A stretch of DNA of 56,329 bases, taken from positions 1 to 56,329 of the IMG/VR virus record IMGVR_UViG_3300031718_000014; one strand, given 5' to 3'. The notes under the pieces were generated by a model. It did not search any database and was not told the origin of the DNA. It worked only from the letters and a program-made list of their open reading frames with translations. A program made the position numbers and the translations under genes. Positions within the stretch are counted from its first letter, which is position 1. Each line of letters starts with the position of its first letter. Positions 5,991-33,917 of the stretch are shown here, in pieces. Origin of the DNA: a virus. Taxonomy: Duplodnaviria > Caudoviricetes.

Positions 5991-5997
5991 CCCACTC

Positions 5998-6261
5998 GTG
6001 CAGCAGCAGAATCAATCTACTAGTTTCGAGTTACTCTCTATCGACCCTTTGTACGACTCTGAAGGTTGGCGCTACGTCGAAGTAGCCGTCAACGGGGTGC
6101 GTGCTCTCCCATTCGCGTTCCACAAGACCGTGGCTTCCCAGTTCCCAACCGAAGACAGTCTGATGGCGTACCTCTGTCGTCAGGCCAAGACCATGATCGA
6201 ACGCTATGGTGATGCACGCAATCCCAAAATTCCCGATGCAAGGGAAGGAAGAGTCAACTGA
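5998..6261 (+). CDS. Hypothetical protein
   Basis: ORF with typical codon usage; no SD. Confidence 0.65.
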   Translation: MQQQNQSTSFELLSIDPLYDSEGWRYVEVAVNGVRALPFAFHKTVASQFPTEDSLMAYLCRQAKTMIERYGDARNPKIPDAREGRVN

Positions 6262-9736: not shown

Positions 9737-9750
9737 AGGAGACGACCGCA

Positions 9751-14870: not shown

Positions 14871-15272
14871 ATGCAGACCGCTACCCAAGCCCGTGTAATG
14901 CGTCGTGGCGATCTGATCCCCGATGGTCTGTACGATCTCGGTTTGGGCAAGTTGGACCCGGATTGGGTGTGGCTGTCACTGGAAAACGAGCGCGTGGTGG
15001 GATGTCTGACAGCCACCCCGTGTCACGGCATCATCATCATTCTGCGAGTAAAAATGGACAAGAACGCCCCTCGTACCGCTCTGCGTCGCTTACTGCGAAC
15101 TTGTTTCCACGACGCTAAACAAAGGGGCTTCGATGGCTATATGACTTGGTTCGCGGAGGACTCCGAGGACGAACGCATTCTGATGACCATTGCACGCAAC
15201 AGCGGCGGTCTGGTGATTCACAAGGTAGGGACTGCGGTAGCGAGTTGGTTCCCACCGGAAGGTACGGTCTGA
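14871..15272 (+). CDS. GNAT-like fold virion assembly protein (putative)
   Basis: Size and position between nozzle and ejection genes, as in podoviruses. Confidence 0.5.
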   Translation: MQTATQARVMRRGDLIPDGLYDLGLGKLDPDWVWLSLENERVVGCLTATPCHGIIIILRVKMDKNAPRTALRRLLRTCFHDAKQRGFDGYMTWFAEDSEDERILMTIARNSGGLVIHKVGTAVASWFPPEGTV

Positions 15273-15277
15273 TTCCG

Positions 15278-15577
15278 ATGCCTGCCGTCATTCCATTGCT
15301 AGGAACTATCTTCTCTATCGTGGGGGGCGGCGTGGGAGCCGGTGAAGCTATTGCCAGTGCGGTGTCCGGTCCACCGTCTGTGTCACAGCCTCCCAACGTT
15401 CCTACGAACGCTCCACCTAAAGTCGCTCCGTCCACTGTGGCGGCAGCCAATTCGTCTACGGCAGCAGACATTCAGGCTCGCGGTGGTGGCGGGCTTTCTC
15501 CTCTGTTCACTCAGTTGATAGAAGGCACACCCTCTCCAGATGGCAGCGGTGGAGGAGTCCCGTACACAGGGGCGTAA
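15278..15577 (+). CDS. Putative internal virion/ejection protein
   Basis: Gly/Ala-rich hydrophobic N-terminus; position. Confidence 0.55.
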   Translation: MPAVIPLLGTIFSIVGGGVGAGEAIASAVSGPPSVSQPPNVPTNAPPKVAPSTVAAANSSTAADIQARGGGGLSPLFTQLIEGTPSPDGSGGGVPYTGA

Positions 15578-15581
15578 ATCT

Positions 15582-16199
15582 ATGCCTGAAGTCGTGCAAG
15601 GTCTAAGCAGCATATTCAAATCTCCTGCGTTCGGTCCCGCAGTATCCGGTGGGACTCTGGCTCTGGGAGAAGTGGGCAATCTGCTCGCTGGCCGACAGCA
15701 ACAGAACGCTTACAACGCCGTCACCAAGATGACTCCCGATCAGATTGCTCGGGACGCTGCTCGCACCGCAGCGCCGCTGGACCGGGCTCTGACTCAGAGC
15801 GTGACCAACCAAGTGAGTGGCGACTTGGCTTCCCGTGGTCTATCACAAGCCCCTGGCATTCTAGCCTCCACTGAATCTCAAGCGCTGGCTCCTTACGCTT
15901 ATCAGAATTACCAAGCGGCTTTGCAGGCTGTCCTACAGAAGCTGGGGCTGAACCTGAACGCTGCCGAACTGTTGCCCAAAGGACAGAACCTCACTCCTGC
16001 AATGATGCTGTTCCTACAACAAATGGCCAAGCTCAAGCAGACCAATGCGAACGCGGGCGCGACTCCACCCACGTTCCCCAATACCAACCTACCACAAGGA
16101 CCGTCGCAATTCCCTGCTGTCCCTGAAGGGACTACGTTCGGCCCACCAGCAGTAGCACCGGAAGCCGATCTCGCCGGTCTCGGGGTGAATCCAGGATAA
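15582..16199 (+). CDS. Putative DNA ejection protein
   Basis: Ala/Gln-rich, LASRGL motif; position. Confidence 0.6.
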   Translation: MPEVVQGLSSIFKSPAFGPAVSGGTLALGEVGNLLAGRQQQNAYNAVTKMTPDQIARDAARTAAPLDRALTQSVTNQVSGDLASRGLSQAPGILASTESQALAPYAYQNYQAALQAVLQKLGLNLNAAELLPKGQNLTPAMMLFLQQMAKLKQTNANAGATPPTFPNTNLPQGPSQFPAVPEGTTFGPPAVAPEADLAGLGVNPG

Positions 16200-16201
16200 C
16201 C

Positions 16202-17062
16202 ATGGGTGGCTTCGGCAATATCGCTCGGACTATCGGTGGTGTGGGCAACGAAGTCATGGCTGCCCAGACTGGTTTGCAGGACCTTAACCAGAAGCTAGTC
16301 GAAACCAAAGTCAAGAACCTGATGGATCAGTTGAAGATCCAGCAGACTCAGCAGCAGATTAAGAAGGGTGAGACCGATCCCCTACAGCAACAACTCGCAG
16401 CTATGGAACAGATTCTCGGTCGCAAGTTAACCGACCAGGAGAAGATCACTTTTCTAAATCTGCTGCCACCACAAGCGAAGGCGCTTCCTGATACTCCATT
16501 TGCAGCATGGCGTGAGCAGAATCCCACTGCTCCTATATCTGAATGGCTGAAACTGGAGAGTAAGCCAGCAGCACAGTCCACTCCATTTGAAGTGTGGCAC
16601 GCTGCAAATCCCAACGCTTCGGTAGCGGACTGGCTGAAACTGGAACAGAGTGTTAAGCCTAAGAGGGCCGCGACTCCCTCTCCCGCCCTCGACCAGTTAG
16701 TAATCGGTCTGTCTACAGGCCAGATCAACAAATGGCCTACCGGGAAGTTGCTCGCACAGGTACTGACTAGGGCCAAAGAAATGGATATTAAGTTACCCAA
16801 GCAGCCCGGTCTGCCTGACAATTCAGCTAAAGCTATTGCTGCCGCTCAAAAGGAGTACCAGTCCGAACTGGACAAGTACAACAGGTGGAACACCGATCAC
16901 TACATGATGCGGCACTTTGAGGACAACCCTTATAAGCAATCTCTATCTGAGAAGATGGATAAGTTGAAAGCACTTAAGACCGGAGCAGTCACTACTCCCG
17001 GTGCTCTTGGTCCCGCTGGAACCGATCTTTCCGATCTAGGTGCAAAGCCGGTGTCGCCGTAA
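16202..17062 (+). CDS. Putative DNA ejection protein
   Basis: Gln-rich helical protein; position. Confidence 0.6.
   Translation: MGGFGNIARTIGGVGNEVMAAQTGLQDLNQKLVETKVKNLMDQLKIQQTQQQIKKGETDPLQQQLAAMEQILGRKLTDQEKITFLNLLPPQAKALPDTPFAAWREQNPTAPISEWLKLESKPAAQSTPFEVWHAANPNASVADWLKLEQSVKPKRAATPSPALDQLVIGLSTGQINKWPTGKLLAQVLTRAKEMDIKLPKQPGLPDNSAKAIAAAQKEYQSELDKYNRWNTDHYMMRHFEDNPYKQSLSEKMDKLKALKTGAVTTPGALGPAGTDLSDLGAKPVSP
16493..16645 (+). repeat. Internal 29-aa-period repeat (TPFxxWxxxNPxAxxxxWLKLE x2)
   Basis: Seen in translation and in DNA (ACTCCATTTG, TGGCTGAAACTGGA). Confidence 0.8.
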
Positions 17063-18780
17063 TGCCTGACGCTGCCACAGTCCGAATGCAGACTCCTGAC
17101 GGCAAAGTATGGGATGTGCCACAGGAGAACGTCCAGAAGGCGCTCTCTCGCGGAGCCAAATTGAGTGGCATCAGTGCTGGAGGGGTGCAGCCATGGGAGC
17201 GCCGCGTTGTCTCTGGGATGGGATTGGATGCGGACAAGATTGCTTCTGCTGGAGGTGTAGGTGCTCAGTGGAAGGAAACCGGCAGCGAAGTTCTCTCTGG
17301 CATTGAAGGCATCCCCAGTTGGCTGCTCTCCGTTCTCAAGGACCCTTTGCACGCCGCCGACCCGGTAGCCAACCCTCTGATGACCATGAAGAAGGCCATG
17401 GACGAGGGCGATTACGCCACTGCGGTTGGGGCTTTGTCTTCAGCGGTGATGGGCAAGAAAGCAGTGGAAGCGGAAGTCCCTTCTATTCGCTACCTGTTTA
17501 ACAAGCCGATTCGCTCTGCCGCTCAGTTCGTCAGCGGGGTAGGTAAAGACGCGGTCGCGGACGCGGAAGCCGCTCACGAAGCCAATATGAGCAACTTGCG
17601 TCAAGGCTACTTGGACGACCTTCGCAAAGCCACTGAAGAGCATGGCAAGAAACTGGACGCGGTTAAGAGCAAGAACGTGGACATTGAGTCCGCTAACGAA
17701 GCCGCTCGTGCCGCCTATCAAGACAAAGTGGCGGGGATCAAAAAGACCTATGCGCAAAAAGTGGCAGACTACCTGAAGAAGTCCAAGGAAGCGTCGGTCA
17801 AACAAACCGAAGCCGGAGTGAAGGGCAAGACCTTTGCCGGTCTCCCAGGCGGCGCAGCGGTCCAGCGTCTTTACGAACTGGCGGACACCGCGTCCGATCA
17901 CGTGAAATCGGTGTACCGGCAGACCAAGGCTGCCATGGATGCTCGATGGAACAATCTTCGCCAAATGGTCGGTCCCGATGCCACAGTAAATTGGGAGCCT
18001 ATTCAGAACGCTGTGATCGCGGCGGAAGACAATCTCCTCAAGGGTTCTCAGGACAACATCAAGTTGTTCCGGGAGATTATGGGGAAGGACGTGATCGGTC
18101 GCAGTGTTCCCTATGAGCAAGCTCGTGGTTTCTTCACCGAGTTGGGAGAGAAAATTCAGTCCCAAGTCATTCCGGGCGACGTGTGGAGAGCACTGAATTA
18201 CGTTCGTGACACCATTGACGACGAGATCGGTAAGACCAACAAGGCAGTAAGTCCTCGCGTGCAGTCATACTACGAGAACCTGAAGAAGGATTATTCTCAG
18301 TACATGCAGGACTTCAGGGATCGTGGCAGTCCTCTTCGTAACCTGATGGAAGCGACCAACCCCAAGGACCGCGTGTCCGCGATTACAGGCAAAGAGGGAG
18401 CCAACGCTATAGATTCTTTGGGTAGGTATACGGACAACGGGTCCAACCCGACTGCTTTGGGTCGCGTTCGCAGCCTATTCAGCGATCTTCGGCAACTATC
18501 TTCCAGTGCTCCTGCATCGCCAGAGAAACCAGGTGCTCCCAAGATGCCTTCGGAGCCTATTCCCAAAAAGACAGTGGCCGAACCGAAGTTCACTCCACCG
18601 GAAGAACCTAAGACCACTGCGTTCAGTCCAACGGAAGCCCGGCTTAAAATCCTTCGCAGCCGTGGCACTGGCGGCGTTACTCCTTCCCTGTTCTGGAAGT
18701 ACACACTGCTTCGGGCTCTGATGCGCAAGCTAGGCAGGAACCCTGAAATAGAGAAGTGGCTCTCGCAGAATTCGCAATAA
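17062..18780 (+). CDS. Large putative DNA ejection protein
   Basis: 572-aa helical protein, TAATG-coupled. Confidence 0.65.
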   Translation: MPDAATVRMQTPDGKVWDVPQENVQKALSRGAKLSGISAGGVQPWERRVVSGMGLDADKIASAGGVGAQWKETGSEVLSGIEGIPSWLLSVLKDPLHAADPVANPLMTMKKAMDEGDYATAVGALSSAVMGKKAVEAEVPSIRYLFNKPIRSAAQFVSGVGKDAVADAEAAHEANMSNLRQGYLDDLRKATEEHGKKLDAVKSKNVDIESANEAARAAYQDKVAGIKKTYAQKVADYLKKSKEASVKQTEAGVKGKTFAGLPGGAAVQRLYELADTASDHVKSVYRQTKAAMDARWNNLRQMVGPDATVNWEPIQNAVIAAEDNLLKGSQDNIKLFREIMGKDVIGRSVPYEQARGFFTELGEKIQSQVIPGDVWRALNYVRDTIDDEIGKTNKAVSPRVQSYYENLKKDYSQYMQDFRDRGSPLRNLMEATNPKDRVSAITGKEGANAIDSLGRYTDNGSNPTALGRVRSLFSDLRQLSSSAPASPEKPGAPKMPSEPIPKKTVAEPKFTPPEEPKTTAFSPTEARLKILRSRGTGGVTPSLFWKYTLLRALMRKLGRNPEIEKWLSQNSQ

Positions 18781-18793
18781 GGAGGTACTAGCA

Positions 18794-18955
18794 ATGGCAC
18801 GAATACGATTCGGCGGTGACGGCGTTCACGACGGCGAACCTTCCGCGCAATCTCACGGTGAAGAGATGATGGCACCGGGAGTACGGCCTCACAAGCGTAA
18901 GGGCAAGAGGGGCGGTGGCCGGAAACACTCGCGCAAGGGTGGCAAGCGGTACTAA
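18794..18955 (+). CDS. 53-aa peptide with basic tail ending RKGGKRY
   Basis: TAAGGAGGT SD; not in the ORF track. Confidence 0.7.
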   Translation: MARIRFGGDGVHDGEPSAQSHGEEMMAPGVRPHKRKGKRGGGRKHSRKGGKRY

Positions 18956-18956
18956 G

Positions 18957-19139
18957 ATGGCCAGGAGAAGGAAACGCAGTCTGGTCTCTCAGAAGATCAG
19001 CCGTTTGGTGCGCGAGGAACACGTTCCGCAACGCCAAGCTATAGCTATGAGCCTGTCCATGAACCGTGCTCATCGCTTGCGTCCGGGAGGGGTTTACAAA
19101 CACGTTAGAAAGTCACGAAGAAAAGGGAGGAGGATGTGA
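18957..19139 (+). CDS. 60-aa basic protein (MARRRKR...QAIAMSLS...RRKGRRM)
   Basis: Starts 1 nt after the previous stop. Confidence 0.7.
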   Translation: MARRRKRSLVSQKISRLVREEHVPQRQAIAMSLSMNRAHRLRPGGVYKHVRKSRRKGRRM

Positions 19140-19393: not shown

Positions 19394-22300
19394 TTGAAGA
19401 AAACTCTACTCACTGTCCTGTTGTCACTGGCTTTCCTGTTCACATTCTCAGGCAAGTCTCGTGCTCAGGATTTCGTGACATTCGGTCTGACCGCACAAGC
19501 AGCAGCGTGCCCGACTAACCCTGGAAACATATCCACATCCACTTCCGCTGTCACACTAGCTACTGTTAACGCGGGTGGAGCTACATTCACCATCGGGTCC
19601 ACCGCTTTCTCCGGCACTGTGTCGTTCTTCGGGTCCGGTGACGGTGGAACCACTTGGCAGGCTCTCAACGTCACGCCGTCCAATAGCACTACCGCTGTGA
19701 CCACCGCGACAGTGACTGGGCTTTGGCAGGCTAATGTAGCAGCTTACACACATGTTTGCATGGTCGTAACAGCGTTCAGCTCAGGCACTGTGACTGCCAC
19801 TATTCGCAAGTCCACTGTCTCCGCGCGTGCTGGGGGTGGTGGTGGCGGTGGTGGCAGCGGCACAGTTACCAGCGTGGCCACGACAGGCCCGATTACAGGA
19901 GGAACTTTCACCACATCGGGAACCATAGCCTGTGCCACTTGTGTCACGTCGGCAGCTGCACTAACTTCCACCGCTATCGTGACCGGGGCGGGCTTGCAAG
20001 CGGAACAGACCCCCTCTGCCACTTCCACCCTAAGCGCAGCAGGAAACTTAGCCATTGCCGGGTCGGTTTCTACAGGAGGTGCCACAGCGACGTTCGGTAC
20101 TGGTGGCGGGATCTCCATGAATGAAGGGACAGCTGCCACCGGAGCTGCCGGGACCGACATCTGCTATGCGGATTCCACCACTCATTCAGAGAAATGCTCT
20201 TACAACAACGGGACGTTCGGAGTTGTCCCTAATGCAGTCACTGCCCCGGTCACTTTGAGCAATGCCGGGAATATAGGATGTGCCACCTGTGCGACCACGA
20301 CCAACGGGGGAGCGATCAGCGGTACTGCGCCGGTCACCGTCTCCGCAGCCGGAGTGATCGCTTGTGCCATCTGCGCTACCACTACGAACGGCGGCGCAAT
20401 CAGCTTCGACAAGAGCGCCACTGGCCTCATCAACCCGACCGCCGATGCCACGTTCACTTACATCAACACGTCGGTCAGCGGTCTTACTTTGGCAGGCACA
20501 GCTCCGGCATCGTCAGCAGGTGCAGGCACAGCAGCGTCAACTCTGTTCAACGTCAATGCCATCATCGGCGGTGCCAGTACGGGAAGTGCGACCACAGCGG
20601 GAGCGGGATCGGCACCGTCCATAGTGGCAGGAGCAGGCGGGTCGGGTGCAGGTGGGACCAATGCCATCGGTGGTGCAGGCGGGTCTATTGCTCTGACAGC
20701 CGGAGCAGGCGGAGCATCAGGTGGCACAGCCATCAACAGCAACGGCGGTTCCATCAACATGACTGTAGGTTCGGCTGGTACTGGGGGCTCTGGCACTGCG
20801 GGTAAAGCCGGTGTGGTAAGCGTCACTGGACCTACCGCTGGATTCGTTTATCTGACGCAAGGCTCCGCGCCGACCACAGCTAATACCAATATCCCAGCGA
20901 ACACCATCATAGATAACGCTCCTGTATCTGTAACTGCATACTCCATCACCAGGGCAGGAGCGGCTGCTACGGGTCTACCTCACTACGCCAACGCCTCGAA
21001 CGTCATCACCGAGACCATCAGCGCAGTCAACTTGGCTTCTGCGGACGTGACCGGCTTGCTTCCCATTAATGACGTGGGCAGCGCCACCGGAGCTATAGCC
21101 ACCATAGCGGACGGTAACAATCCTCTCACCATCAACTGCGCTTTGACCAGTGGCACCACGTGTCTGACTACCGGAGAGACCACGGCGGCTACTACTGCCG
21201 GGGCAGTGGAGTATCAGATTACCACCCTTACGACTTCGACAGCCATCCCGTTGCAGTTAACTCAAGGTGCTAACGGTCCAGCCAGCGCAAACGCCCCTGC
21301 TTTGTTGAACGTCTCAGCAGCTGCTGCGGGAGGATTGGCCACTGCATCACAAAGCGGTTTCGTAGGCGCACCAATTACTTTTCTAACGGGTGCAGGTTCA
21401 GCAGGCGGAGCGACTACAGGCACAGGCGGCACTGGTGGAGCTTACAACCTGACTACGGGCAACGGCGGCGCAGCAGGCGGGAACACCGCTAACCCTGGCG
21501 GGCAGGGCGGCGCTATCAACGAGACCACCGGCAACGGCATTGTGGGTGCAGCTACAGGAGGAGGAGGAGCGGCAGGAGTCTATCAGTATACTGGTGGGAC
21601 AGGGGGTGCTGGAGGTGCTACGTCCGGGACCGGAGGGGCTGGGGGCGACTTCTTAGTCTCCACTGGAACAGGGGGAGCGGCTACTGCCGGGAGCACTACC
21701 GGGCGAGGTGGAAACGCAACATTCACCCTTGGTTCGGCGGGTGGTACTGGTACAGCAGGTGCTCCTGGTCAAATGAGAATAGCGGCTGGTACTACGGCAG
21801 GAGCCAATACAACACCGTTCATCAATCTGACCGGGACTTGGAATACCACTGGGGTTGTGGATGCAGGGATATTCGAGAACGTCACTAATACTGCGTCGGG
21901 AACAGGTTCACTACTATTGGACCTTCAACTGGCTGGGGCTTCGGAACTCAAATTAGAGAAGACCGGACTCTTAACCGCTGCCAATATCATTCAATCCACC
22001 GTAGGTACACAGGTAGTCTCAGGAGCCGACTATACTAACAGCACCACCACGCCATCCACGGTATTTAGTTGGACTCTCCCTGCCACTGCTGCTGCTAAGA
22101 ATTATCGTTACACCTGCGATATCATGTGGGAGAGCACTAACACCACTCTGACGGGTCCACAGTTCGGAGTGAGTATCTCTGCGGCACCTACGCAACTAAC
22201 TTCCTCTAATTCCGTTCAGAACACCTTGGCTGGAGCCGACATCAACGGGTATATATCAAATACTACAACAGGGCACCAGAATGTGGGTGTCGGCACTGCT

Positions 22301-22456
22301 GCGGGTGTAACTAACACTAATTACTGGGCTAAGATTTGGGGCACTATAGAAGGAGCGCCTGTGGCAGGCAGCACATTCATCATCGACGCCGCTGCTCTCA
22401 GCAACACGACATCGACCTTAAATATAAGACGTGGCAGTGGTTGTACCCTAAATTAG
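19394..22456 (+). CDS. Gly/Thr/Ala-rich tail-fibre-like protein with Sec signal peptide
   Basis: AAGGAGG then TTG; MKKTLLTVLLSLAFLFTFSGKSRA-QD; GTVTSV and Gly-rich repeats. Confidence 0.7.
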   Translation: MKKTLLTVLLSLAFLFTFSGKSRAQDFVTFGLTAQAAACPTNPGNISTSTSAVTLATVNAGGATFTIGSTAFSGTVSFFGSGDGGTTWQALNVTPSNSTTAVTTATVTGLWQANVAAYTHVCMVVTAFSSGTVTATIRKSTVSARAGGGGGGGGSGTVTSVATTGPITGGTFTTSGTIACATCVTSAAALTSTAIVTGAGLQAEQTPSATSTLSAAGNLAIAGSVSTGGATATFGTGGGISMNEGTAATGAAGTDICYADSTTHSEKCSYNNGTFGVVPNAVTAPVTLSNAGNIGCATCATTTNGGAISGTAPVTVSAAGVIACAICATTTNGGAISFDKSATGLINPTADATFTYINTSVSGLTLAGTAPASSAGAGTAASTLFNVNAIIGGASTGSATTAGAGSAPSIVAGAGGSGAGGTNAIGGAGGSIALTAGAGGASGGTAINSNGGSINMTVGSAGTGGSGTAGKAGVVSVTGPTAGFVYLTQGSAPTTANTNIPANTIIDNAPVSVTAYSITRAGAAATGLPHYANASNVITETISAVNLASADVTGLLPINDVGSATGAIATIADGNNPLTINCALTSGTTCLTTGETTAATTAGAVEYQITTLTTSTAIPLQLTQGANGPASANAPALLNVSAAAAGGLATASQSGFVGAPITFLTGAGSAGGATTGTGGTGGAYNLTTGNGGAAGGNTANPGGQGGAINETTGNGIVGAATGGGGAAGVYQYTGGTGGAGGATSGTGGAGGDFLVSTGTGGAATAGSTTGRGGNATFTLGSAGGTGTAGAPGQMRIAAGTTAGANTTPFINLTGTWNTTGVVDAGIFENVTNTASGTGSLLLDLQLAGASELKLEKTGLLTAANIIQSTVGTQVVSGADYTNSTTTPSTVFSWTLPATAAAKNYRYTCDIMWESTNTTLTGPQFGVSISAAPTQLTSSNSVQNTLAGADINGYISNTTTGHQNVGVGTAAGVTNTNYWAKIWGTIEGAPVAGSTFIIDAAALSNTTSTLNIRRGSGCTLN
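20240..20404 (+). repeat. 84-nt-period tandem repeat encoding TAPVTxSxAGxIxCAxCATTTNGGAIS x2
   Basis: Seen in DNA and translation. Confidence 0.85.
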
Positions 22457-22469
22457 TAATAACAACCTA

Positions 22470-24230
22470 ATGAGATATATAAATCTCTCTTTCAAAATAG
22501 CGGTGCAGGCTTTCCTCGTCGCCATCCTGGCAATAGGTGTGATCGCTCAATTTGGAGGGAACTCCGGCTTCGGGGGAAAGGCAGGGATCAGCGGAGTATC
22601 TGCATTGGTAGGGAACTCCGATTGCGTCAACGTGCTTTCCACGGGAGCGCTGGGCAACAATTCCAACGACGATACTGCCGGATTCGCGGCGGCTATAGCC
22701 AAAGCAGACAACAGCCAGACAGGGCCGCTATGTGTTTCAGTTCCATCCACCGGAAGTTTTTACTTAATTAAGACCTCCACGGGACTGGCCTTACCACGTT
22801 ATGTCCGAATCGTCTGTGATCCCGGTACTGTGATTAAATTCCCCAACGCAAGTGGAACCTTGTTCCAGTATGGAACAGCTACCGGAGTGGACACCACTTA
22901 TCTTCCCGGAGGCATAGAGAACTGCGGTTTGTTAGGCAATAATGGCGGATCGGATACCAGTCGCGGCCTTCAGCTATGCTCCAATTCCACGGGACAGCGT
23001 TGTGATAACGGAGTATTCCGCAACGTCGATATCTGCTGTTTTGGAGAGGACATCGTCTTCTCCGGCACCAGTGGAACCACTACTCCTTATATGGATGTTT
23101 TTGAGGATGTGCGTACTCACGGTGCCATCACAGATGGCCTTCTTTCAGAAGCCAGCGGCATAGGCGAGCCCAGCACTTTTAACGACTCTGTATTTTTCCA
23201 GAACGGTATCGGCTCGGCAACCGGGTGCGCGATTAGGGTAGCGGCGTCCTCGACCATAATCCTCAATATTACGAACGGTCACATAGACAACAATAGCCCT
23301 ACCAGCGGACAGATATGCACACCGGCGACAGGCAGTATAGAACTTCACATGACGCGGGATCACGTCGAGAAGTCTAACGGAGCAGCGTCCACCGATCTTT
23401 CTCTCTTGGGTACAGTAGCTAATTCAGCCATCAGTCAGGTCTTCTTGAACGACGTGGATTTCGTGGAGAATCAGGCAGCAGCCACTACTATTCTGCCATC
23501 CATTACCATCGTCAATGGATCGTTGCGCATAGACAACGGGACCTGGACTTACGCAGCCGGAGCATCCCAAACTCCCCTCATCAATGCCGGAAATAGCGTG
23601 ACTGGCCAAAGTCTGTTCGTCACTCTCAGCAATTCCAAGGCAACTTGTTCCAATACTTCGGCTAACTGCCAGTTCATATCCTTCACAGGCACCACCGCCA
23701 ACGATACGTACAACATAGTAGGGACCACCCTTTTAACTTTTACTTCCGCCACCAACATAGGCAGCTTCGGAAGCGCCAGTGGTATATCGGACTTAACGCT
23801 GAACGGCGGGGGAACCAGCCCCAGCGGGTCTTCCACTGCCACGGGAACGCTCGCGGCTAACGGCATGACCTGTTTTATTGCCTGTCAAGTGGCCGAAGTA
23901 AATCTCGGCAGCGGCCATGTTCTTATTTCAGGCACGGCTCCTACAATCACCACTCATTTTAACACCAGCGGCGACTCTATAGTAAGTAACGGCACGGCTT
24001 CTATAACGGTCACCGTGGGCACTGGTACAGGTACAAGTACCGGGGTTATTGGGTTGCCTACGGCAACGGCGGGGTGGAACTGTCACCTGGAAAATCAGAA
24101 TCGCGCCGATCAGATACAGCAGACAGGAAGCTCAACTGCTTCTGCTACTTTCACCAATTTCGGAACCACTTTTGCAGCGACAAATTGGACTAATGGAGAT
24201 ACCCTAAGAGGCTGGTGCTCAGCTAACTAG
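22470..24230 (+). CDS. Pectate-lyase-3-like beta-helix (tailspike-like) protein with signal peptide
   Basis: VNVLSTGALGNNSNDDTAGFAAAI motif; hydrophobic leader ending VIA-Q. Confidence 0.72.
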   Translation: MRYINLSFKIAVQAFLVAILAIGVIAQFGGNSGFGGKAGISGVSALVGNSDCVNVLSTGALGNNSNDDTAGFAAAIAKADNSQTGPLCVSVPSTGSFYLIKTSTGLALPRYVRIVCDPGTVIKFPNASGTLFQYGTATGVDTTYLPGGIENCGLLGNNGGSDTSRGLQLCSNSTGQRCDNGVFRNVDICCFGEDIVFSGTSGTTTPYMDVFEDVRTHGAITDGLLSEASGIGEPSTFNDSVFFQNGIGSATGCAIRVAASSTIILNITNGHIDNNSPTSGQICTPATGSIELHMTRDHVEKSNGAASTDLSLLGTVANSAISQVFLNDVDFVENQAAATTILPSITIVNGSLRIDNGTWTYAAGASQTPLINAGNSVTGQSLFVTLSNSKATCSNTSANCQFISFTGTTANDTYNIVGTTLLTFTSATNIGSFGSASGISDLTLNGGGTSPSGSSTATGTLAANGMTCFIACQVAEVNLGSGHVLISGTAPTITTHFNTSGDSIVSNGTASITVTVGTGTGTSTGVIGLPTATAGWNCHLENQNRADQIQQTGSSTASATFTNFGTTFAATNWTNGDTLRGWCSAN

Positions 24231-24245
24231 TATCTGGATAAGACT

Positions 24246-25052
24246 ATGTGCATCGGAACTACAAAGCGATTACTTCTCGCTCTCGTATTACTGTTCATCG
24301 CGGTTCAGGGGGCTCAGGCCCAATCCTTAGTCAGTCACACAGAAGGATCGAACAAGACTGCCAGCACTCAGAGCACTATAGCGACTAGTTCTACGATGAA
24401 CGTGGCAAGCGGCAACGCTCTGGTGGCCTGTGTGCGGCAAGGCACCAATAATACAGCGCCAAGTTCGGTTGGCGACGGCGGTTCTAACGCTTTTACGCAC
24501 ATAACGGCATCGGACGCTACATTCAATAGCACCAATCTTTTATCCCTTTGGGTTAACCAGAACTCTGTGGCCAATGCCACGGCAACCTTTACGGCGACAT
24601 GGGGCACCGCACAAGCGTTCAATTCAATCCTAGTGCGGCAGTATTCGGGAGTTGCGACCTCGGGCGCAGTCGATGCATCAGGAACGGGAACTGCTGCCGG
24701 TCCGGTTTCAAGCGTAACGTCATCGGCGTTTACAACCACGCAGGCTACTGAATTGATCTCCGTGTGTGCCACTGGCAGTGGCACGACTCTGACATTTAGC
24801 GCAGGCAGCATAGGGGGCACCACAGCGACCAATCTGCTCGCCGATGGAGCGGGCGGCGCTGAAATGACAGGAGAAGAGGACTTGACCGTTTCCAGTATTC
24901 AGACAGCGATCACCGCCGCAATGAGCAATGGCACCAGCGTAACTGGTTGGGAAATATCCGTCGTGACCTTGAAAGCGCACAGCGGCAGTGCTGGCGGTGC
25001 GGGAGCGGGAGGGACAGCTGGCTTTGGAGGGACAGGGGGAGTTGGTGATTAA
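24246..25052 (+). CDS. Ser/Thr-rich beta protein with signal peptide
   Basis: KRLLLALVLLFIAVQGAQA-QS. Confidence 0.7.
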   Translation: MCIGTTKRLLLALVLLFIAVQGAQAQSLVSHTEGSNKTASTQSTIATSSTMNVASGNALVACVRQGTNNTAPSSVGDGGSNAFTHITASDATFNSTNLLSLWVNQNSVANATATFTATWGTAQAFNSILVRQYSGVATSGAVDASGTGTAAGPVSSVTSSAFTTTQATELISVCATGSGTTLTFSAGSIGGTTATNLLADGAGGAEMTGEEDLTVSSIQTAITAAMSNGTSVTGWEISVVTLKAHSGSAGGAGAGGTAGFGGTGGVGD

Positions 25053-26925
25053 ATACTTTCTCTTTATCACCGTCCTCTTTATCGCCGTCATCTTTCTATT
25101 TGCACAACCGATTCAGGCGACCACTTGGTATGTTCGCACCGATGGCGGCACGGCTACGCAATGCACCGGCACGACCAATGCAGCTTATCCAGGCAGTGGG
25201 TCGGCTCAGCCTTGTGCGGTGAATCATCCATTCTGGCTGCTTAATCAATCTACATTCGCTTGGCTGATCTCTGGTGGCGACACGGTTCAGTTTGAAGATG
25301 TCGGGCCGTACTACATGGGTCAAAAGAACTCCACCTCAGGTATCGGCACTGGATGGTCTCCGTTCTGCGGCAGTTTAAGTGGCAGCGGCAATACTTCTTC
25401 CTGTATTTGGGGCAGTTTACCATCGGGCTCAATGGGAGCACCTACTCGTATTCTTGGGTTAGGGGCCGGTAACTGCCATCAAACCGATCCCAATATGCTA
25501 GGACCATCTGCTCTGACAGGAGCATGGTCGGGACACGGTATGCTAAAGAATGCTACACAGCTACTAGGTATCAATGGTGCTTTCGGGGTTATGAACCTAG
25601 AGGGTGCCGCGTGGATTGATGTGGAATGCTTCGATATCTCGCAACCTACGACCTGCACGGCATTTGGAGTTGATTATACACACTGCACGTCTAGCGCAAG
25701 CAACGATTGGGCCAAGTATGGCGTGGACCTTGCCGATGTGACGCATCAAGGACCGATTAACGCAGTTTTGAAGGACATCGCGGTACACGGAATGGAAAAT
25801 GAATGCTTCCACGGCGGTCATCTCAATTCGGCGGGAACCGATACTTTCACGGCGTCCGATATTTATTTATTCGGATGTGGCGGGGCCGGATGGAATTTCG
25901 ACGGAGGCAGTTGCGGAAATTCGTGCGAGAACCTCGGCACAATGAATATAAGCTGGCTGAGAATTGAGTGGGCTGGCTGTGTAGAAGTAAAGCCTAATGG
26001 CGGCTCTATCGGTGGAGCGGGATACACATTGTGTGCCGACGATAATCACGGCGGATATGGAGATGGCTGGGCGCTGATAGCCACCCAAGGAACATTTAAC
26101 GTCAACCATGCAATTTTTCGTTGGAACACGCAAGACGGATTCGATAGCTTGCATACGGGCGACGACCAAGCGCATCTGCCGACAGCGCTGAACATAAGCA
26201 ACTCATGGAGCGAGGGTAACGAAGGGCAAACATTTAAGATGGGCGTGGCAACTGCTGCTTTGGCCTACAACAATGTGTCTATCTCTAATTGCCGTAGGCT
26301 AGGCTCGGCATTCTCGCCTAATCCCACGGGGTACAACACCGATCTAAGCGATTTTTGCCGCGCCTCCGGTGATGAATGGGCGATAGAGCTTCTGAATGGA
26401 AATTCGGTAACTTTAGAGCACAATACTAGTACCGGCTACGGTGCGACGATGTTTGACATTTTTTGTGTTGGTGGTGGAACTTGCACAACTACGACGCAAA
26501 TGACCTTCAAAGACAATCTCTCGATGGGATTTGTGGACCCGAACACCAGCACACTGGCCGCAGGAATCAATTTCGGTACAACTAACCCGTTTGGTAACGC
26601 CGGATCGTCTATAGATCACAACCTGTGGTTCTCTATGAAGAACGGCACTTGTCCGCAGGACGCCACCAATGAAACCAATGCCGTCTGTGCCGATCCGCAC
26701 CTTACATCCGAATCGAACATCGATGCCATCGTTCCCACGCTGCTTTCCACAAGCAATGCGAAATACGCGGGAGTGACCATCGGCGGTCAAACAACGGATT
26801 TCCTGAGTAACTCGTGGAACGCGACTACTCCCAGTATCGGTGCGTATGAATTTGGTTCGCAGATATCCGGGGCTAGCGATGTGATCTCCAATGCAATCTT
26901 CGGCCCGACTATAGTCGTTCACTAA
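25045..26925 (+). CDS. Cys-rich right-handed beta-helix protein with signal peptide
   Basis: GGGGAG then GTG; leader ending IQA-TTWYVRTDG; GGDTV and C-terminal SIGAYEF motifs of secreted beta-helix proteins. Confidence 0.72.
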   Translation: MIKYFLFITVLFIAVIFLFAQPIQATTWYVRTDGGTATQCTGTTNAAYPGSGSAQPCAVNHPFWLLNQSTFAWLISGGDTVQFEDVGPYYMGQKNSTSGIGTGWSPFCGSLSGSGNTSSCIWGSLPSGSMGAPTRILGLGAGNCHQTDPNMLGPSALTGAWSGHGMLKNATQLLGINGAFGVMNLEGAAWIDVECFDISQPTTCTAFGVDYTHCTSSASNDWAKYGVDLADVTHQGPINAVLKDIAVHGMENECFHGGHLNSAGTDTFTASDIYLFGCGGAGWNFDGGSCGNSCENLGTMNISWLRIEWAGCVEVKPNGGSIGGAGYTLCADDNHGGYGDGWALIATQGTFNVNHAIFRWNTQDGFDSLHTGDDQAHLPTALNISNSWSEGNEGQTFKMGVATAALAYNNVSISNCRRLGSAFSPNPTGYNTDLSDFCRASGDEWAIELLNGNSVTLEHNTSTGYGATMFDIFCVGGGTCTTTTQMTFKDNLSMGFVDPNTSTLAAGINFGTTNPFGNAGSSIDHNLWFSMKNGTCPQDATNETNAVCADPHLTSESNIDAIVPTLLSTSNAKYAGVTIGGQTTDFLSNSWNATTPSIGAYEFGSQISGASDVISNAIFGPTIVVH

Positions 26926-26943
26926 GGCAAAAGGAGGAACGGC

Positions 26944-27135
26944 ATGACTGTAAGGGTACACGCAATTTTGCAAGTCCTCGGGGTTCTTATTTCAGCAGGG
27001 ACGCTTCTGCAAAACGGCAGTTACATTCCGGTCAAATACGAACCAATCATTGTGCTGGTTGTGAGCACCTTGCAGGGAATCGTGGGGCTCATAAATCACT
27101 ATTACGCTCCCAGTGGTGTTAAGATCTCTTCGTGA
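26944..27135 (+). CDS. Holin-like small membrane protein
   Basis: 63 aa, two hydrophobic segments, AAGGAGG SD. Confidence 0.55.
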   Translation: MTVRVHAILQVLGVLISAGTLLQNGSYIPVKYEPIIVLVVSTLQGIVGLINHYYAPSGVKISS

Positions 27136-27140
27136 AATGA

Positions 27141-27464
27141 ATGTTCCAAACTGGGCCAGATGCTATCACTTTAACCGGGTTGGGGTCCACAGGGCTACTG
27201 ATCTACCTAGTGGTCAAGGAAGCGCTGACCGTTGGCGGTAAGAAACGGAACGGCAAGAGCAGCGGGGAACTGAGCGCAGAATGGTGGGAGCTTAAGTTCA
27301 CCGAGATTGTAGAAAAACAGATGGAACCGTTGTGCAGGTTACTAGAATCGAACAACGAGAAGTTGGATCGAGTTCTAAAGAATCAGATCGACACCCAATA
27401 TGCTATTGCTCAGTTGGTGATGCAGAAGGGTATAATGCCTAAGCGAATTTCAGAGGAGGAATAG
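27141..27464 (+). CDS. Membrane-anchored helical protein (lysis region)
   Basis: N-terminal hydrophobic helix followed by coiled coil. Confidence 0.6.
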   Translation: MFQTGPDAITLTGLGSTGLLIYLVVKEALTVGGKKRNGKSSGELSAEWWELKFTEIVEKQMEPLCRLLESNNEKLDRVLKNQIDTQYAIAQLVMQKGIMPKRISEEE

Positions 27465-27468
27465 CCAA

Positions 27469-28071
27469 ATGGAAGCAATCAATCGCAGGACCTTCGGGAA
27501 GTGGTGGGGCGTAGCAATGGCATCGCTCACGCTGGGCGGTGAGATGTTTATGATCGGATGTGCATCGTTCGCGCAGATACTGGCTTGGGTGCAGACCGGG
27601 CTAGATGCCTTTCAGTCCGTGGTCGATCTGCTGGCAGGGAACGGCGTTATCACCATCGTCATCGGATCGGCTATAGACCTTATCATCAAGGCGATCAAAG
27701 CGGCTATCGCAGACATCGGGACGGCAGTGGATAATTACAATAACGCTCCCGCTGCTTCCAAGGCCACTCTGTTAGGGAAGATCACGGAAGCTCTGATCGC
27801 AGCTCAGAACGAGATCGGCCAGTTCTGGAATGACCTAGCGATACCAGACCCCAAAGTGGCGTCTACTACTGCGGGACTGCTTGGACTGATCGTGAGCCAA
27901 CTGTCTGCGTTCCAAGCCACTATGCCGGTGACCGCTGCGGTAAGGACGCAGATACAGTCCTTCCCTAAGAAGCTCAATGCTGCATCGAAGATGCGATCTA
28001 TCGGGGCATTCAAACAGGAGTTCAACACGATACTGGAGTCTAATGGCTATGCGCAGTACAAACACTTCTAA
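27469..28071 (+). CDS. Putative Tat-exported lipoprotein
   Basis: NRRTF twin-arginine motif, h-region, MIG-C lipobox-like site. Confidence 0.6.
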   Translation: MEAINRRTFGKWWGVAMASLTLGGEMFMIGCASFAQILAWVQTGLDAFQSVVDLLAGNGVITIVIGSAIDLIIKAIKAAIADIGTAVDNYNNAPAASKATLLGKITEALIAAQNEIGQFWNDLAIPDPKVASTTAGLLGLIVSQLSAFQATMPVTAAVRTQIQSFPKKLNAASKMRSIGAFKQEFNTILESNGYAQYKHF

Positions 28072-28531
28072 GCACGTCCTGTTCTTCTTATTACTACTGT
28101 TACTTTCTGGACTGAGCTTCCCGACGCACGCGCAGAATGTTCAGGAGGCTCAGGGGGCTCAGGGAATTCAGTTCCAGCTCAAGGTCACTGCGACCACTCC
28201 ACACAGTGTTACCCTATTCTGGGTAGCTTCTACCGATGCAGCACTTAACCCGACCTTGGGCTATCAGATCTATCGGTTGAACGGAGTGTGTCCGGCCATA
28301 CCACCGACAACGGTTGCAGCAGCTACAGGGTTCCAACTCATCAGTGGCGCAGTTGCTTTAACTGTGCTAACTTATACTGACCTAGGCTTCCCGACGACGC
28401 CACTACCACCAGGGAACTATTGTTACTTTGCCACTAGTATCTTAAACGGGGCGCAGTCTGTCCCGTCTAATCTTGCACCAGCGGTGGTACTTCCGGCACC
28501 GCCGGTCTTGGGTGTGCCAACCACCACTTAG
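28049..28531 (+). CDS. Fibronectin-III-like protein with signal peptide
   Basis: Leader ending THA-QN; SVTLFW...GYQIYR...YTD...YCYFATS...SVPSN. Confidence 0.7.
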   Translation: MRSTNTSKHVLFFLLLLLLSGLSFPTHAQNVQEAQGAQGIQFQLKVTATTPHSVTLFWVASTDAALNPTLGYQIYRLNGVCPAIPPTTVAAATGFQLISGAVALTVLTYTDLGFPTTPLPPGNYCYFATSILNGAQSVPSNLAPAVVLPAPPVLGVPTTT

Positions 28532-28582: not shown

Positions 28583-28786
28583 ATGATCCTGACCAATGCA
28601 CTGTCGGTCAACAACGACAGGATTGACATAGACTCAAGCGCCATCGAGGTGGTGTACGAGAACAGCAGTGTGGTAGGTGGATGCGTGGTCGTACTGAAGA
28701 GTGGGGAGACTTACTTGGTGAGGGAAGACTTTGAGACCATAAGGAGATTAAGAGATGACGCTGCCACTCAGTCCACTGGGACGTAG
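28583..28786 (+). CDS. Small FlbD-like protein
   Basis: IDIDSSAIEVV...VVLKSGETYLVREDFETI pattern; start uncertain. Confidence 0.5.
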   Translation: MILTNALSVNNDRIDIDSSAIEVVYENSSVVGGCVVVLKSGETYLVREDFETIRRLRDDAATQSTGT

Positions 28787-29525
28787 ATACGGGTACAGAC
28801 CTAATCCACCGGATCACAGGGATTACGGACTAAGCAGGATAGAGCTGGTCAGAACACTTCCTACGGCGTTCTCGCTGAAAGACTCTCTAGGTCCGGTCAA
28901 GGACCAGGGCGACGAAGGGAGCTGCACTGCTCATGCTGGGACAGAGAATCTGGAGTTCTTGTACCGCAAGTACAAACACTCGGAACCCATATTTAGTCCC
29001 GCCTTCCTCTATTATCAGGAGAGAGTAATAGACGGAGATCCGAACTACGACGGCGGTTCTACTGGCCGGTCGTCTTGTCAGGCCATGCACAACTACGGGG
29101 TCTGCCTGGAAAGCCAAGACCCCTATGTGGCAGGACAGTATGCGATCCCACCCACAGCAGAACAGGTCCAAGATGCTTTGCAATACAAGTCAGGAGCGTA
29201 CCACTTCCTGACTACGGTCGGGGACATCAAAGCGTGCATTGCTAGTGGATACTGTGTGATGGTTGGGTTCACTGTCTATCAGAGTTTCGAGAGCATTGGC
29301 AGCGATGGCTTGATGCCTACTCCAGACAAGAATGCCGAACAGGTGCTAGGTGGCCATGAAACCTTGATTTACGGATACGATGACGCTACCGGACTACTCA
29401 GCATTCTCAATTCGTGGGGTCCGTCGTGGGGCGATGCCGGATCGTTCAAGATGAAATACAGTGACGCCGCTGATTCTGATATTGTGATGGACTTGGTGAT
29501 TCAACACTTAGGGCTGCCATGGTAA
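28755..29525 (+). CDS. Papain-like (C1A) cysteine peptidase
   Basis: VKDQGDEGSCTAHA, GGHETL and NSWG catalytic motifs. Confidence 0.9.
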   Translation: MTLPLSPLGRRYGYRPNPPDHRDYGLSRIELVRTLPTAFSLKDSLGPVKDQGDEGSCTAHAGTENLEFLYRKYKHSEPIFSPAFLYYQERVIDGDPNYDGGSTGRSSCQAMHNYGVCLESQDPYVAGQYAIPPTAEQVQDALQYKSGAYHFLTTVGDIKACIASGYCVMVGFTVYQSFESIGSDGLMPTPDKNAEQVLGGHETLIYGYDDATGLLSILNSWGPSWGDAGSFKMKYSDAADSDIVMDLVIQHLGLPW

Positions 29526-29728
29526 TCATTCTCCCTGGCACCCCAATCGACCGCGCTCTATGGGGAGTGTGGGTCATCATGTTCGCAGTTCTTGAAGGTG
29601 TGGGAATCGCTCGCAAGTGGGGCTCAACCAGCTTGACCCGACTGACACTGGCAATAGTTCCGCGTTGGGCGCTTGCAATGGGACTTGGATGGACTGTTTA
29701 CCATTTTCTCATCCAGTACAGTCATTGA
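29519..29728 (+). CDS. Small membrane protein
   Basis: Two hydrophobic segments. Confidence 0.6.
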   Translation: MVIILPGTPIDRALWGVWVIMFAVLEGVGIARKWGSTSLTRLTLAIVPRWALAMGLGWTVYHFLIQYSH

Positions 29729-30240
29729 AAATTTAGATGGGCAAATTCACCAAACATACTCTTGGCAGCTTCATCATAGACTCTCGCTGCAATCTCCTTG
29801 CTTCGATAAAATCCAAGGGCCTTAGTTTTCCCGTGAATTCTGATAGACGCATACCATTTGTTTTTTACCTTGTCCCACGAAACTCCTTTGAAGCCACTGC
29901 GATTGTTGCTACGTATCTTCTGATTTCTATGATTCTGACTACCTACGGCACGTCTCAAATTGCTACGTCGATTGTCAAGGGTATCGTGGTTGCGATGGTC
30001 AGCTTGCTCCCACTTATTACAGTCAAGGATAAGGCGGTGCATGTATATTCCAGACGACCTTCGTTTAGCGTAAAAGCCGCCCATGGAATTTGGCAGAGCG
30101 GTCCAATTCCACTGGTTAAGCCATTCAAAATCGGCAGTGTCTACAAGGGCATTTTGTCTTTTGGTAAGTGGAATAATCTTGTAAGATGGGTCTCGCGGCT
30201 GGGTGACTGCGTGACGCTTCACGCGGTATTTTCTAGGCAT
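29722..30240 (-). CDS. HNH-AP2 homing endonuclease
   Basis: YMHRLI...DHRNHDTLDNRRSNLR plus AP2 domain SGFKGVSW...AARVYDEAA. Confidence 0.92.
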   Translation of the reverse strand: MPRKYRVKRHAVTQPRDPSYKIIPLTKRQNALVDTADFEWLNQWNWTALPNSMGGFYAKRRSSGIYMHRLILDCNKWEQADHRNHDTLDNRRSNLRRAVGSQNHRNQKIRSNNRSGFKGVSWDKVKNKWYASIRIHGKTKALGFYRSKEIAARVYDEAAKSMFGEFAHLNFQ

Positions 30241-30288: not shown

Positions 30289-30762
30289 ATGTCACTCGAT
30301 AACATCTCGCTTGCCAGACTAGCTGAAGTCCACCCGGTCTTGTCGGCTCGTGTTCAGAGTTTGGCATCGCAGCTGGATTTCCCTATCAGGGTCACGCAGG
30401 GCATTCGGACAGTTGCTCAACAGAACGCTCTGTGGCAGGAAGGCCGGGATAACGATGGGAATGTGATTGGTAGGACCGTGACGAATGCTAAGGGTACTGA
30501 GAGCAATCACGTCATGGGAGTAGCGGTAGACGTAGTGCCAATGGATCTGCCGGACGATCACCCGGACTGGGACGAAAACTCAGCGTCATGGCAGAGGATA
30601 GTAGCATTGGCTTCGTCATGCGGATTGAGGGATGGCAAGAGCTTCCATGACGAGCCTCATCTGGAACTGATGGAAGTACCGGAAGTTCCTACTGAGGAAA
30701 TTCAGAGTATCTATCTTCAGGCCGGAGCGATGGCAGTGTGGCAGGAGTTGAATATCGCTTAG
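30289..30762 (+). CDS. Endolysin, M15 family peptidase
   Basis: GIRTVAQQNALW..GR, SNHVMGVAVD, DEPHLE. Confidence 0.88.
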   Translation: MSLDNISLARLAEVHPVLSARVQSLASQLDFPIRVTQGIRTVAQQNALWQEGRDNDGNVIGRTVTNAKGTESNHVMGVAVDVVPMDLPDDHPDWDENSASWQRIVALASSCGLRDGKSFHDEPHLELMEVPEVPTEEIQSIYLQAGAMAVWQELNIA

Positions 30763-33423: not shown

Positions 33424-33701
33424 TCCCTCCACTCGTAGCCACCACTCATTGGCCTTCGGCCAATTTCGTGCTGCCTACTTCCTCCCTGCTCTCAAAATCC
33501 TCACGCACGGTGGCATCCAGCACCTTACGGAACCGCCAGAGTGCTTGCACTCCCACCAGACCCCACCTTGTCCAGATTAAGCCCCCAGTGATGGCGAAGG
33601 TAGTCAAGACCATGTACCCAATGTAACTCAAGAGGTCGAGCGTGGTTGATGTAGATTGCGGGTTAACCTGTGTGGCTCCCACTACCCCGCCCTCATGGGC
33701 C

Positions 33702-33917
33702 TCACTGGTCTGAGCCTGGATGTTGAGAGACACAGTGACCGTTAGGAGTAGTAAACATACTGCCCCCGCCACCAGTTTTTTCGTCAGAAACGAAGTCCCA
33801 ACCGGGCGGGCATTTGGCAACCATGATGTAATTAAAGTCGCCGGGGAATTGGTAGCCTTCATACGGTTCACCTTGTGCTCTCCACTTCGGCTCAGGTGCT
33901 TTGGTGTCATTGGGCAT
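33702..33917 (-). CDS. Hypothetical protein
   Basis: AAGGAGG SD. Confidence 0.55.
   Translation of the reverse strand: MPNDTKAPEPKWRAQGEPYEGYQFPGDFNYIMVAKCPPGWDFVSDEKTGGGGSMFTTPNGHCVSQHPGSDQ

Follow-up and report, generated by a model that had tools for sequence, protein, structure and literature searches.

The Caudoviricetes record IMGVR_UViG_3300031718_000014 of IMG/VR was analysed over its whole length of 56,329 bases (hereafter the window), which forms a complete virus record bounded by an exact direct terminal repeat of 127 bp (positions 1-127 and 56203-56329). Five genes on its plus strand, here called F1 to F5, lie at the fibre locus, within the late structural block and 3' of the tail and ejection genes. 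F1 (19394..22456; 1020 amino acids (aa)) was characterised through its start and ribosome-binding site, homologue searches, a structure model and its composition, F2 (22470..24230; 586 aa) through homologue searches, F3 (24246..25052; 268 aa) through its sequence and a comparison with relatives, F4 (25045..26925; 626 aa) through homologues and a structure model, and F5 (28049..28531; 160 aa) through its sequence. All five carry a leader of the general secretory (Sec) type, such leaders recur at the same position in related phages on proteins that are unrelated in sequence, and the mature parts hold an even number of cysteines, from which it seems that the large sugar-binding proteins at this fibre locus probably fold outside the cytoplasm.

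Leaders were called with a heuristic of our own (n/h/c anatomy plus the residues at -3 and -1), supported by conservation; its criteria for Sec and signal peptidase I are a positive n-region, an uncharged h-region of 7-17 residues, and small residues at -3 and -1. The first-pass annotation had assigned AxA-type leaders to the genes at 19394, 22470, 24246, 25045 and 28049, and all of these starts and leaders were confirmed in the sequence. In all five leaders a short, basic n-region precedes 13-17 uncharged, hydrophobic residues, and the predicted cleavage sites (SRA/Q, VIA/Q, AQA/Q, IQA/T and THA/Q, from F1 to F5) are all of the small-x-small type. F1 starts with TTG at 19394, with GGAGG 7 nt upstream, and its leader of 24 aa (19394-19465) reads MKKTLLTVLLSLAFLFTFSGKSRA, followed by QD. 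The leaders of F2 (ATG at 22470; 26 aa, 22470-22547), F3 (ATG at 24246; 25 aa, 24246-24320), F4 (GTG at 25045; 25 aa, 25045-25119) and F5 (ATG at 28049; 28 aa, 28049-28132) end in ...AILAIGVIA/QF, ...FIAVQGAQA/QS, ...FLFAQPIQA/TT and ...SGLSFPTHA/QN, respectively. Neither a lipobox (i.e. a cysteine at +1) nor a twin-arginine motif was found in the leaders of F1-F5. A heuristic score of at least 5 was reached by 7 of the 79 open reading frames (ORFs) that a greedy gene call gave for the window, namely F1-F5, a small gene at 33820 (minus strand) and a doubtful ORF at 15245. Given 7 leaders among 79 genes, four leader genes in succession (F1-F4) would occur by chance with a probability of ~ 0.002. 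The module had been described as carrying leaders in its entirety, which is true of these five genes, but three small membrane or lipoprotein genes (at 26944, 27141 and 27469) separate F4 from F5.

A few other properties of these proteins can be mentioned here. Glutamine at +1 after cleavage is a rule of the Bacteroidota, and no C-terminal sorting domain of the type IX secretion system appeared in the Pfam scans. Lysine and arginine together make up just 1.5-3% of mature F1-F5, and serine and threonine 18-31%; elsewhere in the window lysine plus arginine amounts to 12-14% (terminase, portal and the ejection-like protein g17062), 7% (capsid) and ~ 5% (tail proteins). A small leader-bearing protein devoid of cysteines (33446-33910, minus strand; ...VSLNIQA/QT) is encoded in the early or replication region. 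Searches of Pfam, PHROGs, NCBIfam and PDB sequences with F1-F5 gave nothing useful, save for a sub-threshold match of F5.

A search with the capsid protein gave 21 related viral loci, and five whole relatives (G001-G005) were compared with the window. The core common to all six runs only from the large terminase gene (terL) to g15540 (capsid 46-85% identity, tail proteins 40-63%), and variability can therefore not single out the F1-F5 module. All five relatives encode large proteins at the same position, after ejection-like genes and before small membrane proteins (g17062 itself was not found in five relatives), and although the majority share no sequence relationship with F1-F5, they have textbook leaders. 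In a sample of 28 locus proteins from the window, G001-G005 and one further locus (L002), 27 bear a leader (for 23 of them with an [AGS]-Q junction somewhere within residues 15-36), and in G001-G004 every protein of at least 200 aa at the fibre locus is leader-bearing. Among the leader-bearing proteins that the relatives encode, one is of the GH18+Ig type and one of the CBM5/12 type, GH30-like matches being present in relatives too, and in G004 a leader-bearing protein with a second type of conserved N-terminal (anchor) region lies between the capsid and tail genes. Among homologues of the module proteins themselves, the leader is kept in 54 of 58 for the N-terminal domain of F1, in 85 of 119 for F4, and in 67 of the 107 F2 homologues of at least 300 aa among the matches listed; those scored without a leader include fragments as well as true leaderless proteins, and for host proteins of the F4 type they are probably fragments or wrong starts. 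Conservation in homologues and same-locus proteins, which had been proposed as a check on the leaders, was thus borne out, and extends to non-homologous proteins at the locus. Far from its fibre locus, G004 also encodes a leader-bearing repeat protein of the 'QGNLYG' type (15563-16690, minus strand; 375 aa), with 7 cysteines, an odd number.

The mature cysteine counts given earlier for F1-F5 (14, 16, 2, 20 and 2, all even) match our recount, a third cysteine of F3 being located in its leader. Over the window and six related records, 26 of the 27 leader-bearing locus proteins have an even number of mature cysteines (p = 4e-7), and for 25 of the 27 the outcome is independent of the cleavage site chosen. 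The same is seen among homologues, with 48 even and 6 odd for the F1 N-domain, 78 and 7 for F4, and 58 and 9 for the 67 leader-bearing F2 homologues. As a control, ORFs of at least 120 aa with no leader and at least one cysteine were counted in the window and G001-G005, giving 93 even versus 113 odd. Leader-bearing ORFs (some doubtful small ones included) are distributed 30 to 5, and against all 257 leaderless ORFs (144 even, 113 odd) a Fisher test gives p = 7.5e-4. The even-cysteine bias is therefore found in leader-bearing proteins and is lacking in leaderless proteins of the same genomes; its use as a criterion for exported disulfide-bonded proteins reportedly goes back to work by Dutton and colleagues in 2008. 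Together, leader and even cysteine number turned up in hundreds of proteins. Given the leader anatomy, its conservation over unrelated proteins, the cysteine parity with its control, and the invariant glutamine at +1 in the F1 family (see below), export and oxidative folding of the module proteins are well supported as far as sequences can tell, and it is very likely that proteins of the F1-F5 type leave the cytoplasm.

Behind its leader, F1 has a domain of residues ~ 26-140 (19469-19813) that was modelled as an XepA-C/YomS-like beta-sandwich, followed by a poly-Gly linker, a shaft rich in Gly, Ala and Thr, in which a CxxC motif occurs at each of residues 180, 296 and 324, and a C-terminal domain. 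A search with residues 24-190 gave 59 proteins of 561-1501 aa, 57 of which are encoded on contigs of at most 67 kb; among the 58 non-self matches, glutamine occupies +1 in 37 of the 54 that bear a leader. The alignment shows no variation at Q25, where the mature protein begins, or at C39, and the conserved domain ends at the poly-Gly run, beyond which the sequences diverge, a pattern that fits a lineage-conserved N-terminal attachment domain with an exchangeable distal part. Across 301 genomes of the family of G007, a Tunturiibacter genome holding F4 paralogues, the domain was matched in a single one, and weakly so (E = 2.7e-4). In the window, G001, G003 and G004, moreover, the gene with this domain comes immediately after the ejection-like genes. 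The model of residues 1-209 is a beta-sandwich with a predicted local distance difference test (pLDDT) score above 93 over residues 30-140. In a structural search against representatives, the XepA C-domain (6i56) came first (Z 14.3, root-mean-square deviation 2.4 Å over 106 residues) and YomS (6i5o) second (Z 13.7), with the next entry at 7.8. Foldseek agrees (E = 7.6e-6, probability 1.00), and many uncharacterised phage proteins in BFVD match the model. In an Atlas feature search, F1 led independently to viral clusters with Pfam XepA, no more than a lead at a score of 0.86, while the N-domain had no match in the Pfam profiles scanned, a set without the XepA/YomS family PF27453.

F2 consists of a Gly-rich N-terminus, a core of residues ~ 50-470 that is common to a few beta-helix-like phage proteins, and a C-terminal domain of ~ 105 aa (23907-24227) that is found at the C-terminus of hundreds of proteins. 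An exhaustive HMMER search gave 877 homologues, whereas a word-based search found almost none; most of the matches cover the last ~ 105 residues only, always at their own C-terminus, and the core is matched by 12 proteins at E < 1e-30. One core homologue (P0186; 752 aa, 7 cysteines, 35% identity over 384 aa), from another phage contig with 45.6% GC, has no leader. Its start lies right at the stop of the preceding gene, and it stands directly upstream of a gene similar to that of the 1054-aa tail protein of the window; judged by sequence and setting, it looks like an ordinary tailspike. The second anchor type has no similarity to the N-terminus of P0186, nor does the C-terminus of F1 resemble the small ORF upstream of it.

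F4 has more than 1000 homologues (1073 at E of 0.001 or better), among them chromosomal proteins of Tunturiibacter, Edaphobacter and other Terriglobales with 45-48% identity over ~ 590 residues, leader included, and 15 of its cysteines are invariant or near-invariant among 50 homologues. Its model (pLDDT 90) is a right-handed parallel beta-helix. The top structure matches (7v6i, 5gqc, 1ru4, 5olr and 8bwk) are GH136 lacto-N-biosidases, a PL9 pectate lyase, a rhamnogalacturonan lyase and PL6 alginate lyases, with phage tailspikes ranking lower; identity to these beta-helix enzymes is 9-14%, and no family profile was matched. Host chromosomes carry two or three F4 paralogues within 20 kb, and one such Tunturiibacter locus is a surface-polysaccharide cluster with a flippase, a GT2, two GT4, a GT87, a polysaccharide deacetylase and a methyltransferase. 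The only other relative of a window gene near the host paralogues is a GT2 that resembles part of the phage glycosyltransferase. We infer from this that the host is a member of the Acidobacteriaceae, an assignment made through the kinship of F4 only, because no relative of the capsid protein (i.e. no prophage) was found in five Acidobacteriaceae genomes holding F4 paralogues.

Of the two smaller proteins, F3 has a Gly-rich C-terminal tail, and its residues 70-243 correspond to an internal domain of a 1423-aa leader-bearing protein in G002. F5, judged by its sequence pattern, looks like a lone FN3 domain, and a similar, FN3-like leader-bearing protein of 224 aa is present in G005. The three small envelope genes of the module (s1-s3, 26944..28071, plus strand) were assigned functions from sequence features: s1 (63 aa) resembles a holin in its two hydrophobic stretches, s2 (107 aa) combines a transmembrane segment at its N-terminus with a coiled coil, and s3 (200 aa, 27469-28071, plus strand) has an RRxF motif of the twin-arginine translocation (Tat) type, followed by a lipobox (...FMIGC). 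The predicted product of s3, a Tat-exported lipoprotein among lysis genes, is much larger than a usual o-spanin; homologues with ~ 28% identity exist in G002 and G003, the G003 copy reading NRRTFL...LTGC.

Upstream of the module, the plus strand encodes a large terminase, a portal and an HK97-type capsid protein, and 3' of the capsid gene, in this order, a protein of ~ 155 aa, a 410-aa 'tail protein' and a 1054-aa virion protein. The ~ 155-aa gene occurs in two tandem copies in another related locus (L011) and may encode a capsid decoration protein; relatives of ORF 9679-10356 (plus strand) align only from residue ~ 71, and the real gene is probably ~ 155 aa with a start near 9889. The 1054-aa protein (g11706; 11706-14870, plus strand; 7 cysteines) has no leader and is 58-63% conserved in close relatives, save for an insertion of ~ 225 aa (residues ~ 723-947; 13872-14546, plus strand) that was seen in the window only: it is absent from the five whole relatives, so that G001-G004 have no such insertion in their tail protein, and alignments with other loci skip it. 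The insertion had no detectable family in the Pfam scans and no similarity to F3, and among PDB sequences no significant match to profiles of the two tail proteins was obtained. For g11706, the Atlas gave a weak lead to the P22 gp10-type 'Phage_stabilise' (score 0.83; a lead only). The next genes (14871-19139) encode several small or coiled-coil proteins, none of them matched in the databases, and F1-F5 come after these. The late block then closes with small membrane proteins, one of them of 69 aa (29519-29728), a C1 peptidase of the papain type (28755-29525) that lies between F5 and the endolysin, and the M15/VanY endolysin itself (30289-30762). The peptidase, the 69-aa protein and the endolysin, all encoded on the plus strand, have no leader.

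The minus strand carries the replication genes (a family A DNA polymerase, a uracil-DNA glycosylase, an intein-bearing helicase and an ERCC4 nuclease) as well as a GT2-GT9-methyltransferase fusion. This fusion (702 aa) adjoins a 390-aa C-methyltransferase (50885-54123, minus strand), its GT2 part matches the GT2 beside the F4-like paralogues in the polysaccharide cluster of the host, and, judged by their predicted activities, these genes may alter the surface polysaccharide of the host. The helicase gene (42288-44891, minus strand) is split by an intein with an HNH endonuclease domain. Genes for AP2-domain and HNH endonuclease-like proteins at 29722-30240 and 5275-6015 (both on the minus strand) are located within blocks of late genes, to which they run opposite, and resemble homing endonucleases; in G002 a counterpart of the former with 44% identity is present. 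Scans of the window gave no match to an integrase, a tRNA, a tail tube, a sheath or a tape-measure, and the phage is therefore presumed to be lytic and podovirus-like. Nor did the window yield any gene for a Dsb-like protein, for secretion or for an integrase, and a promoter and terminator scan of the F1-F5 module gave chance level only.

The boldest reading that these results allow, with a probability of roughly 0.38, is that a whole podophage-like lineage of soil viruses of the Acidobacteriaceae sends its receptor-binding fibres and spikes through Sec, that these fold with disulfides in the periplasm, and that the particle is finished at lysis. In the explanation that we prefer, the five proteins would be made with leaders cleavable by signal peptidase I and moved to the periplasm of a diderm host of the Acidobacteriaceae type, where their paired cysteines would be oxidised; they would bind or cleave glycans of the surface polysaccharide of the host. 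Proteins of the F1 type, with a leader, a phage-only disc domain of the XepA-C/YomS type, a Gly hinge and a variable fibre, would be the fibres of the particle. With its terminase, portal and HK97-type capsid, the phage would assemble in the cytoplasm and lyse the cell. The F1-type fibres would encounter the fibre-less particle, built in the cytoplasm, only once the holin-endolysin step has merged the two compartments. That such late attachment is feasible is illustrated by P22, the heads of which can be completed in vitro by adding tailspikes. F4 is more likely a free enzyme, because it appears to be a copy of a secreted host enzyme and has no anchor domain, while F2, F3 and F5 could be either part of the virion or free. 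To this mixed course, in which the particle would take up F1-type proteins once the compartments have merged at lysis and F4-type proteins would remain free enzymes, we give not far short of an even chance.

The first-pass annotation had proposed both export for oxidative folding and subsequent attachment to the virion; the former is upheld by leader conservation and cysteine parity, while for the latter the evidence points both ways, and attachment of the module proteins is held to be somewhat less probable than even. In its favour are the fibre architecture of F1, its phage-only N-domain and fixed gene position, the tailspike-like appearance of leaderless F2 kin, and the lack of any other spike in G001-G004. 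Several observations weigh against it, or against exported receptor binders in general. Exceptions to the rule of leaders exist, in the form of a leaderless 741-aa locus protein with 11 cysteines in G005 and a leaderless 835-aa ORF upstream of the leader-bearing proteins of L002. Both P0186 and P0188, which have no leader, retain the cysteine pairs 116/152 and 393/400 of the F2 core, and the pair of its C-domain (538/583) is present in 58 of 65 leader-bearing versus 28 of 34 leaderless proteins (Fisher p = 0.36). The idea that cysteine pairs occur only together with leaders thus failed for F2, and it follows that export is not needed for the F2 fold. The similarity of F4 to host proteins starts near residue 10, which leaves it without a phage-specific attachment domain. 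XepA, furthermore, stands far above the other structural matches to the F1 N-domain. Export of fibres is not known from any tailed phage, and no report of Sec leaders on such fibres was found in the literature searched. The claim that no signal-less fibre gene is evident agrees with the locus proteins of at least 200 aa in G001-G004, but less well with leaderless g11706 and its unique insertion, which could be a built-in receptor-binding domain; indeed, receptor binding could be carried by the leaderless tail proteins g10456 and g11706 altogether.

In the closest rival reading, the module encodes late accessory proteins that are exported to the periplasm or secreted and never join the particle. 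F1 would then form multimers in the manner of XepA, and F2, F4 and the relatives' GH18 and CBM proteins would be enzymes acting on polysaccharides. Such proteins would loosen or strip the exopolysaccharide and envelope of the host, allowing progeny to escape without re-adsorbing to debris, with receptor binding left to the leaderless tail proteins. We regard this as only slightly less probable than the mixed course. To our knowledge, all Sec-leader proteins of tailed phages known so far are non-virion, and the module adjoins lysis genes, as xepA does. F4 belongs to a host family with two or three paralogues inside a polysaccharide-synthesis cluster, the GH18+Ig and CBM5/12 proteins of the relatives carry leaders, and the insertion of g11706 would offer another site for receptor binding. 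The precedent of XepA is close in structure (Z 14.3 and 13.7 against 7.8 for the next entry), and XepA of PBSX from Bacillus subtilis is described as exported, as not present in mature particles and as forming pentameric discs (PMC6834076). A 1020-aa fibre with a swappable tip is, however, odd as a free protein, the N-domain of F1 is phage-only with a fixed first position after the ejection-like genes, leaderless members of the F2 family resemble ordinary tailspikes, and G001-G004 would be left without any spike or fibre save the two conserved tail proteins. That the leaders are not export signals at all, and that the proteins stay in the cytoplasm (or are exported to a minor extent) and follow the usual tail assembly with the N-terminus as a membrane tether or buried in the tail, would account for the same conserved cysteines in leaderless F2 homologues. 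This is very unlikely in view of an n/h/c anatomy, small residues at -3 and -1 included, that is repeated in unrelated proteins, the invariant +1 glutamine in the F1-family alignment, the strong even-cysteine bias confined to leader-bearing proteins, and leaders of the same kind on host homologues of F4 (85 of 119 scored). Soil viral glycoside hydrolases have been described as auxiliary genes, and together with the kinship of F4 to secreted host proteins and the GH18, CBM5/12 and GH30-like matches in the relatives this could mean that the genes are host-derived, carbohydrate-active ones that feed the infected cell from soil polymers and play no role in adsorption or release. It is highly improbable, though, for a module that takes up ~ 16% of a lytic-type genome between virion and lysis genes and in which the F1 N-domain and F2 C-domain are phage-typical, and the host copies of F4 lie in a cluster for polysaccharide synthesis rather than utilisation. 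The remodelling of the host surface, finally, which had been named as the alternative to fibre export, has some support from the phage GT2-GT9-methyltransferase gene, because its GT2 part matches the GT2 beside the F4 paralogues of the host.

If the fibres are indeed exported and joined to the particle, virion assembly of a tailed phage would be split over two compartments, which is outside the current picture of Caudoviricetes morphogenesis. It would also explain disulfide-stabilised adsorption proteins in phages of harsh, acidic soils, and provide a route by which a phage can adopt periplasmic polysaccharide enzymes of its host, leader included, as ready-made spikes. If the proteins are not on the particle, a large and fast-evolving share of a lytic genome would encode exported glycan-active proteins related to XepA and to exopolysaccharide enzymes of the host, which bears on how 'glycoside hydrolase' genes of soil viruses are to be read. 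Either way, the combination of a leader with an even number of cysteines is a simple marker that can be used across metagenomes.

Compared with known systems, the locus resembles several without coinciding with any. Podophage tailspikes and fibres of the P22/T7 type share with it the position after ejection-type genes, glycan-active domains, the beta-helix (F4 and the F2 family), and a conserved N-domain with swapped C-termini (F1). They have no signal peptide and fold in the cytoplasm, however, whereas F1-F5 all carry leaders, and in the structure matches of F4 the cellular GH136, PL9 and PL6 enzymes rank above phage tailspikes. Late phage proteins that use host Sec before lysis exist in the form of Sec-exported or signal-arrest-release (SAR) endolysins and phage lipoproteins such as Llp of T5, but these are small lysis or exclusion factors, while the exported set here comprises ~ 9 kb of fibre- and spike-like genes. 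In filamentous phages, pIII and pVIII are virion proteins that have leaders of the Sec type, with periplasmic disulfides in pIII; inoviruses, though, assemble at the membrane and are extruded, in contrast to a phage with a terminase, a portal and an HK97-type capsid. Closest to the N-domain of F1 are XepA (PBSX) and YomS (SPbeta), since residues ~ 21-141 of F1 superpose on the XepA C-domain and on YomS, albeit with a sequence identity of 12-16%. XepA also has a C2-like N-domain and is not known to have a classical leader, whereas in F1 the shared domain is N-terminal, behind a classical Sec leader, bears a fibre of ~ 850 aa and belongs to a phage of a presumably diderm host. The authors of the XepA and YomS structures speculate that the XepA C-domain and YomS might bind capsid vertices (PMC6834076). 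The closest relatives of F4, in turn, are the secreted beta-helix proteins of the Acidobacteriaceae ('Ig domain-containing' or 'choice-of-anchor Q' in NCBI names), which often add He_PIG Ig, ricin or CHB_HEX_C domains in the host copies, whereas F4 is the bare core, placed in the late operon of a phage.

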